Shown here in pieces: positions 28,803 through 55,761 of a DNA stretch of 64,000 nucleotides. The stretch lies in the IMG/VR virus record IMGVR_UViG_3300035666_000002, one strand, 5' to 3'. Position 1 is the first letter of the stretch. Each line of letters begins with the position of its first letter. A program made the position numbers and the translations under genes. The notes under the pieces are model-generated. The model saw nothing but the letters and a program-made list of their open reading frames with translations, did no database searches and was not told where the DNA came from. The DNA comes from a virus.

Positions 28803-28816
28803 TGATCTCCTTTGAA

Positions 28817-29102
28817 TGGTGGGTTATTCTGTTACGAGGAAACCCACCGAAACCCTAGGCTGTGTTTAGGCAGCCAATGCGAAACGTTCTTCGTTTGCGT
28901 TTACTTCGATTTACTTTTAGCGACTCTCTGTGTCGAACCGTCCATCTTCCTACTTATTGCCCCGTCGAAACCAGGTCAGGCCCATCAGAAGCACACAAAG
29001 ACCTTTTGGCTACTGCCGATACCAGTCGATATGCACTTCTGGTGGACCTGGGCGGAATCGAACCGCCGTCCGAGACACTTTTCAGTCAACTTCATACGAT
29101 CA
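28817..29102 (-). ncRNA. ssrA: circularly permuted (two-piece) tmRNA; tag ANEERFALAA
   Basis: T-arm and acceptor 3' strand GGCGGTTCGATTCCGCCCAGGTCCACCA ends at 29040, upstream of the 5' end GGGCCTGACCTGGTTTCGAC starting at 28983; G3.U70 pair; tag ORF 28898-28866; outer limits approximate. Confidence 0.92.
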
Positions 29103-29144
29103 TGTGGTATTATATAGCAATAAAGATTTAAGGTGAGGCAATCT

Positions 29145-30356
29145 TTACTCTACAAAATATTTTTTACTATGCAATAAAGGTAAAGTAGAAAATTCGAATC
29201 TTTTTTGTTGATTAAAATTGTAAGAAGTTGTCTTAATCAAACTAGAAAAATTTTGTATATATTTTAAAGCACCATTATTCCATATTTTAACATACTTGTC
29301 ATCCAACTTATCGACCCACCAACAATCAATATTTTTTTTACCATTAAGACGTAGTTTGGGGGTTACTATATTTGGAGACCAATGTGGATATATTGTTTTG
29401 TGATATAGATCATATCTCAAATTTTTTCTCAAATGTAATTTAGATTCACAGGTAAAAGAATTTCTGAATTCTGTATTATCTAACTTATTTGAATTTTCGA
29501 AGAGTGACACATCATTTTGTTTCTCATATTTTTCCACTGTTTTTTTGAGAAGGTGAATTTGCTTTATGATTAATTCGGGGAACTTTGGAGTTTGATAAAA
29601 AAATTCTATTATATTCGTTGGATTTAACTCGATACAATTATGCATACTTGTTGTTATGTCGCATGCCATAATATCATTGAATACTGTATAATATTTTTTA
29701 TCGTTTAATTTAAGCAAAGGTTTATCGACACCCATAACCACACCCACTTTTTTGCCGGATGATATCATATCGAATATATGAGGAATATATTTAACCCATA
29801 TTCCTCTCATCATCCAGAATGATGGAAATGTACCAGATGAAAACAATAACTCATAATAGTCTTTAGAATATAAATCATCCCATATTTTTTTAGTAATTTC
29901 TATTTCATCTACAATCGTTACCTTAGTTTCCATGTTTTCTTTTAAAAGTCTTTCTAAAATAGGTTTAACATTATAGACGTAATCGGCGTTATGGATTGTT
30001 CCTTGCACAACAGATGTAGAATTGTAAGTGTTGAAATTTATGATTTCATCTAACTTTATTTGATTTCTCAAAAAAGTTTGTAAAATATTTGTGCTATCTG
30101 GTCCTCCACTATATTGAAGGATGACATAATCATATTCATCTCTTATTTGCTGTGCTCTTCTTCTATAAAACTCCTCTATAGAAACTTCAGGTTCCGGCTC
30201 TCGCGTCCAATCATATCTATCAAAAACATGTTCATTAAATTTATACTCAACTCTAGCATTTTTAAGCAAAGCTTCGTTGTATGCTAAATTTTTAGAAAAG
30301 AATATTTTTCCACCAACTGAGTAATATCCAAAATCGTTATTCAGAGATAATGTCAT
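29145..30356 (-). CDS. PP-loop (adenine nucleotide alpha-hydrolase-like) protein
   Basis: LQYSGGPDS motif; paralogous to 33240..34322. Confidence 0.7.
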   Translation of the reverse strand: MTLSLNNDFGYYSVGGKIFFSKNLAYNEALLKNARVEYKFNEHVFDRYDWTREPEPEVSIEEFYRRRAQQIRDEYDYVILQYSGGPDSTNILQTFLRNQIKLDEIINFNTYNSTSVVQGTIHNADYVYNVKPILERLLKENMETKVTIVDEIEITKKIWDDLYSKDYYELLFSSGTFPSFWMMRGIWVKYIPHIFDMISSGKKVGVVMGVDKPLLKLNDKKYYTVFNDIMACDITTSMHNCIELNPTNIIEFFYQTPKFPELIIKQIHLLKKTVEKYEKQNDVSLFENSNKLDNTEFRNSFTCESKLHLRKNLRYDLYHKTIYPHWSPNIVTPKLRLNGKKNIDCWWVDKLDDKYVKIWNNGALKYIQNFSSLIKTTSYNFNQQKRFEFSTLPLLHSKKYFVE

Positions 30357-38939: not shown

Positions 38940-38989
38940 ATTATAACACAAGAGGAAACGCTGTCAACCTGTGTTGTTTTTTTACAACT
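38940..38989 (-). promoter_or_regulatory. sigma70-like promoter with palindrome
   Basis: TTGACA-16-TATAAT; TGTTG-N8-CAACT at 38972-38989. Confidence 0.8.
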
Positions 38990-49299: not shown

Positions 49300-49375
49300 T
49301 GGCACGCCGCGAAGGACTCAAACCTTCAACTCAAACTTCGTAGGATTGTGTGATATTCAATTTCACCAACGGCGT
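49300..49375 (-). tRNA. tRNA-Arg(ACG)
   Basis: Loop CTACGAA; imperfect anticodon stem; 5' half overlapped by the HNH ORF. Confidence 0.8.
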
Positions 49376-49774
49376 AAATATTTTTCCTGCATGATACTTT
49401 CTGTGACAATTTGCACATAAACAAGCACATTTATTAATTTCTTCCATAATTTTATTTTTACTAGATTCAATTTTCGTTGATATATCAAAATCTTTTTCAT
49501 TACTGTCAATATGATGAAAATCTAAACAGGAAGAGTCTGACTCACCACATACACAACAACTCAATGTGCTTTTCAATTTAAAAAACCATTCTTTATTGTC
49601 CTTTTTATATTGTTTGATTCTACTTAAATTCGTTTCATGGTGTTTGTAGTAAGAAATTTTTTTTCTTTCTTTTCTACAATCGTTACACATAGAAGTTCTT
49701 TTTCCTAATGCTTTATTTTTGAAAGCAAAATTTTCTACAGGAAATTGTTTTTTACAGGAAGAACAAGTTTTCAT
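49331..49774 (-). CDS. HNH homing endonuclease with N-terminal zinc finger
   Basis: CSSC..CNDC; CCVCGE..LDFHHID..KCACLCANCHRKYH. Confidence 0.88.
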   Translation of the reverse strand: MKTCSSCKKQFPVENFAFKNKALGKRTSMCNDCRKERKKISYYKHHETNLSRIKQYKKDNKEWFFKLKSTLSCCVCGESDSSCLDFHHIDSNEKDFDISTKIESSKNKIMEEINKCACLCANCHRKYHAGKIFTPLVKLNITQSYEV

Positions 49775-52209: not shown

Positions 52210-52304
52210 TGGTAGTAGGTAAGAGATTCGAACTCTTCCGTTTCAGCCCATCTGACCGATCTCCCGAGCTTATAAGACTCAGCCGCACACCAGTGCTACC
52301 TACC
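52210..52304 (-). tRNA. atypical tRNA with UAU anticodon (nominally Ile), long variable arm
   Basis: Acceptor GGTAGGT/ACCTACT, loop CTTATAA, about 27-nt variable region, 4-nt D-loop. Confidence 0.75.
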
Positions 52305-52586: not shown

Positions 52587-52599
52587 TTTTTAAAGAACA
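52587..52599 (-). promoter_or_regulatory. boxA-like antitermination element
   Basis: TGTTCTTTAAAAA immediately before the first tRNA. Confidence 0.7.
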
Positions 52600-52608
52600 A
52601 CTACTAAT

Positions 52609-52643
52609 AAAAAACCCCAGAGACCTTTTGGTGTCTGGGGTTT
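52609..52643 (-). terminator. intrinsic terminator (attenuator) ahead of the tRNA array
   Basis: AAACCCCAGA-CACCAAAAGGTC-TCTGGGGTTT-TTT; its 5' arm also pairs with GGGGTTTGTGT at 52682-52672. Confidence 0.88.
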
Positions 52644-52667
52644 GTGTGAATTTCTACTATTCTACAA

Positions 52668-52784
52668 CTATACACAAACCCCTAAAATCTTATTATCGCA
52701 GGCATTACCAATCTCTAGATAAAAGGATGGCTGCCACGATGTTGATCGTGTTATGGGTCTAAAATAATGTTTGGTTTTAATCAT
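52668..52784 (-). CDS. putative 38-aa attenuator leader peptide MIKTKHYFRPITRSTSWQPSFYLEIGNACDNKILGVCV
   Basis: ATG at predicted +1 of the promoter; contains all 20 amino acids; last codons form the antiterminator 5' strand. Confidence 0.75.
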   Translation of the reverse strand: MIKTKHYFRPITRSTSWQPSFYLEIGNACDNKILGVCV

Positions 52785-52790
52785 AGTAAT

Positions 52791-52819
52791 ACTATATATG
52801 CTTTTTTTCTCTTTGTCAA
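52791..52819 (-). promoter_or_regulatory. sigma70-like promoter of the leader/tRNA operon
   Basis: TTGACA(52819-52814)-17-TATAGT(52796-52791). Confidence 0.85.
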
Positions 52820-53115
52820 GGGTTTAAATCAATTTTATGTAAACTAGATTTTCGAACTGTTCCGTCTTCATCTCGATAACACACATATCCTTCTTCATCA
52901 ACAAAAACAGAACCATTCCAAAAATATTTTCGAGTCTTATATTTTGCGATTGCTTCTTCAGAGTATTCGGTTACATCGTGCTTAATTGAACCCAACCAAT
53001 CGTCCCAGTTTGGATCACACTCTTCTGCAATTTGCAAAAGATGATCCTCATTCTCAGCTTCAATTACATGAACATTACGAAAAGTGGAAATTGTTTCAAC
53101 GATATACTTTTTCAT
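52816..53115 (-). CDS. hypothetical protein
   Basis: ATGA-coupled ORF; KYIVETISTFR N-terminus. Confidence 0.7.
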   Translation of the reverse strand: MKKYIVETISTFRNVHVIEAENEDHLLQIAEECDPNWDDWLGSIKHDVTEYSEEAIAKYKTRKYFWNGSVFVDEEGYVCYRDEDGTVRKSSLHKIDLNP

Positions 53116-53417
53116 TTTGCTTGACCCAGTGTAAATTTAACTTCTTTAATCGAGTCCCAACGGAAAGAACGCCATCCTTTTGCTTCAATATCGAACACTG
53201 CAAGAGACTCTGTAGGTTTAGTACGACCAGAGTTTTTGGGTGCTTGATCGACAGGAATATCACCTTCATACAAGGTACAATTCATTACACGTTCAGTACC
53301 ATCTTGTTTCGTGAAAGTGACAGTCACAGATTGTTCGCAAAGGACACCAATCAACCAATCCCTAGCTTTTTGATCAGCGAAAGTGTTTGTATCAACATTA
53401 TCAATCATTTTCATCAC
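53112..53417 (-). CDS. Sm-like/SH3 (WYL_2-type) domain protein
   Basis: VTFTKQDGTERVMNCT..VFDIEAKGWRSFRWDSI. Confidence 0.8.
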   Translation of the reverse strand: MMKMIDNVDTNTFADQKARDWLIGVLCEQSVTVTFTKQDGTERVMNCTLYEGDIPVDQAPKNSGRTKPTESLAVFDIEAKGWRSFRWDSIKEVKFTLGQAK

Positions 53418-54837: not shown

Positions 54838-55020
54838 TCAAACTCCTGATTTTGCAAATTTAACAAACTCAAAATAATCGCGAAGACACCGAGTGCCTTC
54901 ATACTCTTCAATATGAGTTTCAATGTATCGCAAAGCTTCTACTGGCTTGTAGAACCAAGCATTACAAATTGCAGAAATCTCATCGAAGAGGGCTGGGAAG
55001 TTTTTCGTTTCATTCATCAT
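54838..55020 (-). CDS. hypothetical early protein
   Basis: Starts 7 nt after TATAAT. Confidence 0.6.
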   Translation of the reverse strand: MMNETKNFPALFDEISAICNAWFYKPVEALRYIETHIEEYEGTRCLRDYFEFVKFAKSGV

Positions 55021-55027
55021 GTAATCG

Positions 55028-55086
55028 ATTATACAGAAGCCAAGCCAAATGTCAAGCAGTCAGGAGTTTGTTGTTTTTTAGCAACA
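55028..55086 (-). promoter_or_regulatory. sigma70-like promoter with palindrome
   Basis: TTGACA-16-TATAAT; palindrome 55069-55086. Confidence 0.85.
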
Positions 55087-55454: not shown

Positions 55455-55701
55455 AACTCAACCAATATTCATCAATCTCACGAATCATATCTTCATGCAT
55501 AAGATCCACGATTTCTTGGCGAAGATTATCAGCAAGTTCAGAAAGTTCAAAATTGATTTGATCGAGATTCATCAGGGCCTCCAGACAAAAAGATCAAGAC
55601 AACCGACAACAGCAGCAGCAATCAGAACCACAACAAAAGCAACATTGAAAAGATTTTCTTCAGTCATTACAAACTCATGAAAGTTATTCATCACATTGGT
55701 A

Positions 55702-55761
55702 ATTATACTGAGGCTGAAGCGATTGTCAAGAACTTTTATTCATCGTTGTTTTTTTGCAACA
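55702..55761 (-). promoter_or_regulatory. sigma70-like promoter with palindrome
   Basis: TTGACA-16-TATAAT; CGTTG-N8-CAACA at 55744-55761, overlapping a CDS end. Confidence 0.8.

Follow-up and report, generated by a model that had tools for sequence, protein, structure and literature searches.

In attenuators of the trpL and hisL type, the position of a ribosome on a short leader open reading frame (ORF) decides between an intrinsic terminator and an antiterminator that shares a strand with it, and the thr and ilv leaders are multivalent. The leaders of erm and cat genes sense stalling as well; in their case, arrest requires a drug and a specific nascent peptide. To our knowledge, little is established on how phages control their transfer RNA (tRNA) genes. 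Here, we analyzed a locus on the minus strand of a 64,000-nucleotide (nt) stretch of IMG/VR virus record IMGVR_UViG_3300035666_000002, which is referred to below as the window. At this locus, a 38-codon leader ORF that contains all 20 amino acids, an antiterminator, and an intrinsic terminator precede a phage tRNA array, and we concluded that this arrangement is probably a ribosome-mediated transcription attenuator that senses overall decoding capacity. An attenuator had been proposed in an earlier reading of the window (the original prediction), and three comparative signals supported it: an open frame that is conserved in relatives, an all-20 composition that appears to have been kept, and a conserved pairing that covaries. 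The race between ribosome and RNA polymerase and the actual response of the switch are what we infer from these signals.

Like trp/his-type attenuators, the locus combines a short ORF, an intrinsic terminator, and an antiterminator built on a shared strand, and the position of the ribosome would decide the outcome. The window leader also contains a pairing like the 1:2 pairing of trp-type leaders, which predicts termination when the leader is not translated and resembles superattenuation. In contrast to trp/his-type attenuators, there was no run of a single codon, and every amino acid was present once or a few times; the predicted targets were tRNA genes and not biosynthetic enzymes; the start was apparently leaderless in most lineages; and the 5' strand of the antiterminator (segment 2) was located inside the last codons of the ORF and not after its stop codon. 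As with the erm and cat leaders, any event that arrests a ribosome on the leader would trigger the response, so that translation itself would be reported, but the erm and cat leaders have neither amino-acid completeness nor a link to tRNA genes. With rrn-type boxA antitermination, the locus shares a boxA-like motif that opens a non-coding operon; binding of NusB/NusE is putative here. The mycobacterial leaderless short ORFs with polycysteine tracts (Canestrari et al., bioRxiv 10.1101/834739), which sense cysteine and control how the gene behind them is translated, also bear a likeness to the locus: here, too, a short ORF that is apparently leaderless and would be sensory is located at the 5' end of an operon, and stalling would remodel the downstream RNA. 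The phage locus differs in having an intrinsic terminator, all 20 amino acids, and no tract of one residue, and its downstream genes are non-coding tRNAs, which have no ribosome-binding site that could be sequestered as in the mycobacterial ORFs. Full-text searches of the literature found no paper that joined phage tRNA arrays with leader peptides or attenuation.

The source phage was a large myovirus with T4-type baseplate genes. Its promoter P1 (TTGACA-17-TATAGT, positions 52791 to 52819, minus strand, as are all features of the locus) scored 11/12 in a promoter scan, and the predicted transcript start was the A of the ATG at 52784, which is located 6 nt past the -10 box with no Shine-Dalgarno motif upstream. 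The leader ORF that begins there (52668 to 52784; 38 codons plus a TAG stop codon at 52670-52668) is apparently leaderless. It uses 31 distinct codons, counting ATG, and, for Leu, Arg, Gly, and Ile, includes codons of the two isoacceptor classes; its first 30 codons specify 19 amino acids, and Val, which occurs only within segment 2, is the one absent there. Segment 2 (GGGGTTTGTGT, 52672 to 52682) occupies the last four codons, and the antiterminator 3' strand, segment 3 (ACACAAACCCC, 52637 to 52647), is its exact reverse complement over 11 base pairs (bp). Segment 3 overlaps the span of the intrinsic terminator (52609 to 52643) by AAACCCC and the stem proper by CCCC. The terminator consists of a 7+3-bp stem with one mismatch, an AAAA loop, and six T, and the stem was calculated at -16.5 kcal/mol, or at -20.1 kcal/mol with an A/U extension. 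It is followed by a boxA-like motif (TGTTCTTTAAAAA, 52587 to 52599), which was assigned by motif match only. All of these elements, from the promoter to the boxA-like motif, had been named in the original prediction and were confirmed base for base, as were the codon and amino acid counts and the placement of Val.

The tRNA array begins with tRNA-Gln, 35 nt past the end of the terminator, and extends from 52573 to 48042. ARAGORN identified 26 genes in the array, which serve all 20 amino acids, as stated earlier; the earlier count had been 27 genes. No promoter was found between the terminator and tRNA-Gln in the promoter scan. An internal promoter (52095-52068) with a 12/12 consensus match, followed by a second boxA-like motif, could drive distal tRNAs without the leader, as had been predicted; the number of distal tRNAs is 21 rather than 22.

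We propose that the switch would work as follows. The mRNA made from P1 would start at the AUG of the leader. An undelayed ribosome would reach the stop codon and cover segment 2, leaving segment 3 free, and the terminator would form before tRNA-Gln. If a ribosome were held at any earlier codon, segment 2 would pair with segment 3 and the terminator base would be blocked, and RNA polymerase would continue past the boxA-like motif and transcribe the tRNAs. No amino acid is missing from the leader, each being encoded one to a few times, and for Leu, Arg, Gly, and Ile both codon classes are present. Phage tRNA synthesis would therefore rise when nearly any tRNA became scarce or was cut, or when elongation slowed in general. 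Once the tRNA supply was restored, the array would be shut off again, which would constitute a feedback loop. Phage tRNAs are known to rescue infection when defenses cut host tRNAs, as described for PARIS (PMC11464382) and retron effectors (PMC11555353), and such findings show how a phage could profit from this type of control. The wider proposal, that large phages carry a dedicated sensor of whole decoding capacity in which a selected all-20 leader and a terminator switch respond to loss or cleavage of nearly any host tRNA (for example, by anticodon nucleases) or to a global decay of tRNAs at late stages of infection by inducing replacement tRNAs, which then switch the sensor off, has in our judgment an even chance of being correct.

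A single all-20 ORF was by itself unremarkable. As the original prediction had suggested, we computed how often such ORFs arise by chance: all 20 residues were found in 0.23 to 0.24% of the 38-residue frames of the window; among random peptides with the amino acid composition of the phage, the share was 0.19%. Because there are about 159 small ATG-started ORFs per window, one such ORF would not stand out in a scan of many windows, and it is only the comparison with relatives that makes the composition significant.

No relatives among cultured phages were found when the GenBank phage collection was searched with megablast, blastn, and tblastn; therefore, all comparisons were made with metagenomic contigs. 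Three independent patterns were used: the promoter plus start block (in viral and metagenome contigs), the first codons, and the antiterminator helix alone, the last of which left the promoter, the start, and most of the peptide unconstrained. A 99-residue protein encoded upstream, used as a further handle, contributed three contigs (L001-L003). Promoter-block matches located before other genes (L010, L016, L020, L022, L031, L033, L011, L013, and others) were excluded, as were four helix-pattern matches that had no terminator (L061, L063, L071, and L079). In the case of L064, L066, L078, and L083, the first ATG of the stop-to-stop frame was rejected as the start because it falls upstream of the promoter, and the promoter-proximal start was taken instead. 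After unrelated matches were removed, 33 distinct leader peptides of 28 to 50 codons were obtained. Many of the peptides had under half of their residues in common with any other. A tRNA array was located directly downstream at every locus with enough downstream DNA; the arrays mostly began with tRNA-Gln, at a distance of about 30 to 110 nt in most. The P1/start block was conserved among the relatives, a GC-rich hairpin with a T-tract was present in the window and in every relative, and the core TTCTTTAAAAA or a close variant followed the terminator in 26 of 30 lineages, as judged by motif match.

The relatives' peptides were rarely incomplete: 27 of the 33 contained 20 amino-acid types, 4 contained 19, and 2 contained 18. 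To account for shared ancestry, we used a null model in which a spanning tree was drawn from the window, residues identical to those of the nearest relative were frozen, and the others were redrawn. The sum of types was 632, compared to 600.7 +/- 4.2 under the null (z about 7), and 26 of 32 peptides were complete, compared to a null mean of 13 and a maximum of 22. Neither value was reached in 50,000 simulations, and phage-proteome and uniform backgrounds gave the same outcome. With an earlier, smaller peptide set, P was about 1e-4. The expectation that a single sequence contains all 20 residues was 0.015 to 0.5%. Completeness was also examined in the helix-found set, in which 9 of 12 lineages were all-20 by scripted ORF calls (10 of 13 if the hand-read, GTG-started ORF of L060 is counted); two of these complete leaders have only 31 to 32 codons (P about 2e-4 each). 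We regard this set as an independent replication of completeness. Leaders L030 and L049 reach 20 types within 29 codons (P = 6.5e-5).

Singleton residues relocated rather than disappeared; for example, the sole Arg shifts its place between L038, L043, and L050. Trp, His, Cys, and Met were kept as singletons in almost every lineage, and the positions at which a stall leaves segment 2 free covered 17 to 20 types. The leaders had no codon runs and were maximally even in composition, so they were not enriched for particular amino acids of an operon; their tie to the operon differs in that a complete set of amino acids is matched to tRNAs that serve the complete set. In 119 of 130 cases, Leu, Arg, Ser, Gly, and Ile had both of their tRNA classes sampled, compared to 104 +/- 3.3 with synonymous resampling that ignored shared ancestry. 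Taken together, the results indicated that the all-20 completeness of the leader is under selection. The stricter idea that the leader samples every phage tRNA species was rejected: the window leader has no AGY codon (Ser-GCU) and no internal Met codon, and several relatives have no AGR codon, even though L009 has a tRNA-Arg(UCU).

The leader frame was kept open. Frame 0 was free of stop codons in 22 of 22 versions checked, whereas the other two frames contained one to six stops. In the relatives, the start was either an AUG at the predicted +1 or was preceded by a Shine-Dalgarno-like motif; specifically, L060, L070, L086, and L087 have a short purine-rich Shine-Dalgarno-like leader before the start codon. 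Since the type of start differs among lineages, it is a translatable frame that has been kept and not a particular 5' end. The conserved open frame and the placement of the starts suggested that the leader ORF is translated, as did the occurrence of a like start layout before other genes of the phage, a 126-codon gene among them. Residue identity appeared to drift almost neutrally, with 9 synonymous and 17 non-synonymous codon changes in close pairs.

The antiterminator duplex of the window outperformed shuffled controls (2 to 3 per 1000 to 2000). Among 15 lineages, the duplex of segments 2 and 3 surpassed its shuffled versions in 14 (P <= 0.03), with L017 as the exception. In an alignment of eight lineages (A3), 92.6% of the cells of a 12-bp helix were paired, compared to 27 to 53% when the strands were slid. 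Three pairs were changed on both sides, and the covariation score was equalled by 11 of 500 shuffles. Three-way changes were also observed: where the terminator stem has CCCT/AGGG or CCTCT/AGAGG, segment 2 follows. In L009, L058, and L076, the reading frame through the helix nucleotides is not the one used in the window, and the stop codon is still located at the end of the helix; thus, RNA pairing and stop position are what is kept. Counting the A-tract, the antiterminator overlaps the terminator arm least in the window, by 8 nt, and takes up all of it in L019, L030, and L009.

Ribosome masking was then modeled in silico for 14 lineages, at equilibrium only. A ribosome placed at the stop codon gave the terminator base a probability of 0.99 in each of the 14 lineages. 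When the stall was set 20 codons before that point, this probability was 0.30 in the window, <= 0.04 in five lineages, 0.2 to 0.4 in three, and about 0.9 in the remaining five. With no ribosome, the window leader would terminate with a probability of about 0.75, because AGACCC in codons 9 and 10 (52755 to 52760) is predicted to pair with segment 2; this candidate segment 1 was identified from the minimum-energy fold of the untranslated leader. The expectation in the original prediction that loss of the ATG would lead to constitutive readthrough is therefore doubtful for the window, whereas for leaders of the L009 and L058 types folding does predict readthrough in that case. A small hairpin within the ORF (CACGA-N6-TCGTG, 52735 to 52750) ends at the Trp codon and is a candidate RNA polymerase pause hairpin. 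Seven lineages retain it (alignment A2), and in L046/L042 one pair has changed on both sides from G-C to A-U; as a sign of a transcription pause site, this is only suggestive.

The placement of promoters bore on whether the array is gated. In 17 of 30 lineages, the window included, there was no promoter between the terminator and the first tRNA; the boxA-like motif and then the tRNA come directly after the terminator, and thus the proximal tRNAs in these lineages would be transcribed only via readthrough. Several observations weigh against the attenuator, beginning with the other 13 lineages, which carry a strong consensus promoter after the terminator that bypasses the gate. In these lineages, the leader would only add to a basal level and would not be the sole control. 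The bypass promoter seems to be easily gained and lost, because L038 (L038:1533-1834) and L043 (L043:2331-2713) differ in it despite near-identical leaders; L043 has about 80 extra nt that include a consensus promoter, as well as a different tRNA-Gln sequence, which makes the promoter a presence/absence polymorphism. The folding results also raised difficulties. In the five lineages with a high terminator probability during stalling, the terminator wins at equilibrium even with segment 2 free, so kinetic trapping must be assumed there. Of the 11-nt stem arm of the window terminator, no more than CCCC is taken up by the antiterminator. The full antiterminator (-19.7 kcal/mol) is 4.4 kcal/mol less stable than the terminator combined with a shortened upstream hairpin (-24.1 kcal/mol); therefore, the window switch may be leaky. 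In L003, L017, L042, L046, L037, and L057, which have longer C-termini, segment 2 ends 4 to 15 nt before the stop codon, so a terminating ribosome would cover it only in part.

The remaining points of this kind concern composition. L046 has no Cys or Val codon, although its array has both tRNAs, and L037 and L057 have no Val codon. The codon-class result given above took no account of kinship, and one search pattern partly fixed the ATA codon. In addition, part of a published account that models leader-peptide attenuators (PMC1183508) implies that a leader with a single codon for each amino acid responds little when one of them is mildly scarce. Even at single codons, however, the ribosome would stall hard if the tRNA were cleaved or absent.

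The last of these points involved contig L026, which has two cassettes. The paralogous first cassette has 16 amino-acid types only and precedes a block of tRNAs for Glu, Tyr, Asp, Cys, and Met. We had considered whether the set of amino acids in a leader equals the set of tRNAs, and this idea failed for the first cassette, which has no Phe, Gly, His, or Lys despite the presence of those tRNAs on the contig. The second cassette (L026:3553-3687) has 18 types, and its antiterminator outperformed shuffles (2 per 1000). Its leader lacks only Cys and Tyr, whose tRNAs are found only in the first block, and it includes all 15 specificities of the second tRNA block. The second cassette seemed to partly resolve the mismatch between leader and tRNAs in L026, with statistics that were weak (P about 0.05 and 0.28). 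The second cassette is separated from its tRNA block by about 830 nt (L026:3746-4576) that include an oppositely oriented gene, and this segment looks like an insertion that uncouples the two.

Three other explanations were weighed against the attenuator that senses decoding capacity. The same switch might respond to a more general signal, such as ribosome availability or the timing of infection (shut-off of host translation or the early-to-late transition), with the composition of the leader serving as an unbiased speedometer. Leaderless starts depend on the availability of 70S ribosomes, which counts for this explanation, and the phage carries a transfer-messenger RNA (tmRNA). It also agrees with the part of the account cited above (PMC1183508) from which it appears that having each amino acid once or a few times suits a sensor of global rate better than a specific one. 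A speedometer, however, needs evenness and not completeness, yet rare singletons were kept and lost copies were replaced elsewhere; in the split codon families, sampling of the two isoacceptor classes together exceeded the expectation from synonymous resampling. For these reasons, we consider a general signal unlikely.

The two further explanations do without a ribosome-controlled switch. The ORF could be a stand-alone small gene, encoding a small protein or forming part of a dual-function RNA, that merely adjoins the array; the terminator would insulate the array, and the tRNAs would be made from other promoters or by leaky readthrough. The bypass promoters in 13 of 30 lineages would fit such a gene, as would the fairly conserved N-terminal residues and Trp-x-x-x-aromatic motif and the presence of other leaderless small ORFs (40 and 60 codons) in the phage. 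We judge it to be quite improbable, given that non-synonymous changes predominate in close relatives, that the frame of the C-terminus differs between lineages while the nucleotides remain paired, that a folded or binding peptide does not account for selection of all 20 residues, that the proximal tRNAs lack any other promoter in 17 of 30 lineages, and that the peptide matched no protein family. It is very improbable that the leader is an untranslated structured RNA (an RNA-only terminator, a processing signal, or a protein-binding site) with an incidental open frame. Stops were confined to the other two frames in the 22 versions checked, the start codon was always at the predicted +1 or behind a Shine-Dalgarno-like motif, the composition signal was present at the amino-acid level only, and the leader region matched no Rfam family; what speaks for such an RNA is that the helices are conserved, that GC-rich palindromes are located near the Trp codon in several lineages, and that the evidence for translation is indirect.

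If the wider proposal of a dedicated sensor is correct, no earlier attenuator would be known that acts on tRNA genes or that uses all codons as regulatory codons. A leader that tests every amino acid would widen the principle of attenuation, which would then apply to all amino acids instead of one and to stable RNA genes in addition to enzymes, and phage tRNA sets would be inducible and self-limiting and not simply timed. Such a leader would also provide a compact reporter of natural origin for global decoding capacity, suited to reuse in laboratory work. Selection for completeness amid near-neutral drift is an unusual evolutionary signature, and it could be used to find further sensors.

A number of observations were made on the remainder of the window and on the related contigs. 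An ATG located 6 to 7 nt past the -10 box was also seen at further phage promoters, one of which precedes a 126-codon gene. Specifically, consensus promoters with ATG or ATGATG 6 to 7 nt on were found at 55028-55055 (ORF 54838-55020), 55702-55729 (ORF 55572-55694), and 38940-38967 (ATG 38933), and the apparently leaderless ORFs behind them have 60, 40, and 126 codons, respectively. Other phage promoters have normal leaders with ribosome-binding sites. The same promoter/start block was found in six of the unrelated contigs excluded above (L010, L016, L020, L022, L031, and L033), where it is located before a leaderless gene for a protein of the NAD-binding type that has GxGxxG at its N-terminus. 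This block may serve widely as a strong signal for leaderless expression.

The tmRNA of the phage is located at 28803-29150 (minus strand) and matched the betaproteobacterial two-piece (permuted) type in Rfam with 133.8 bits; the tag predicted by ARAGORN is ANEERFALAA. The type of tmRNA is a hint of a betaproteobacterial host, and its presence suggests a wider translation toolkit. Upstream of the leader promoter, the second gene (53112-53417, minus strand) encodes a 101-residue protein with a WYL_2 domain (Sm-like SH3 barrel; Pfam E = 9e-13). No PHROGs or Pfam match was found for the upstream 99-residue protein, and no PHROGs match was found for the leader peptide.

Within the tRNA array, an HNH endonuclease gene (49331-49774, minus strand; PHROG 2255, E = 2e-30) overlaps tRNA-Arg(ACG) at its 3' end. 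The array of L030 contains a tRNA with the anticodon UUA (L030:4472-4548), which ARAGORN labeled tRNA-Stop (ochre suppressor type), and the L030 leader ends in TGA. The window array also contains a 95-nt tRNA with the anticodon UAU and a long extra arm (52210-52304, minus strand), and a tRNA of this kind was found in L001, L014, L019, L037, L046, L058, and L090. An ATA codon was kept in every leader, alongside this recurring tRNA.

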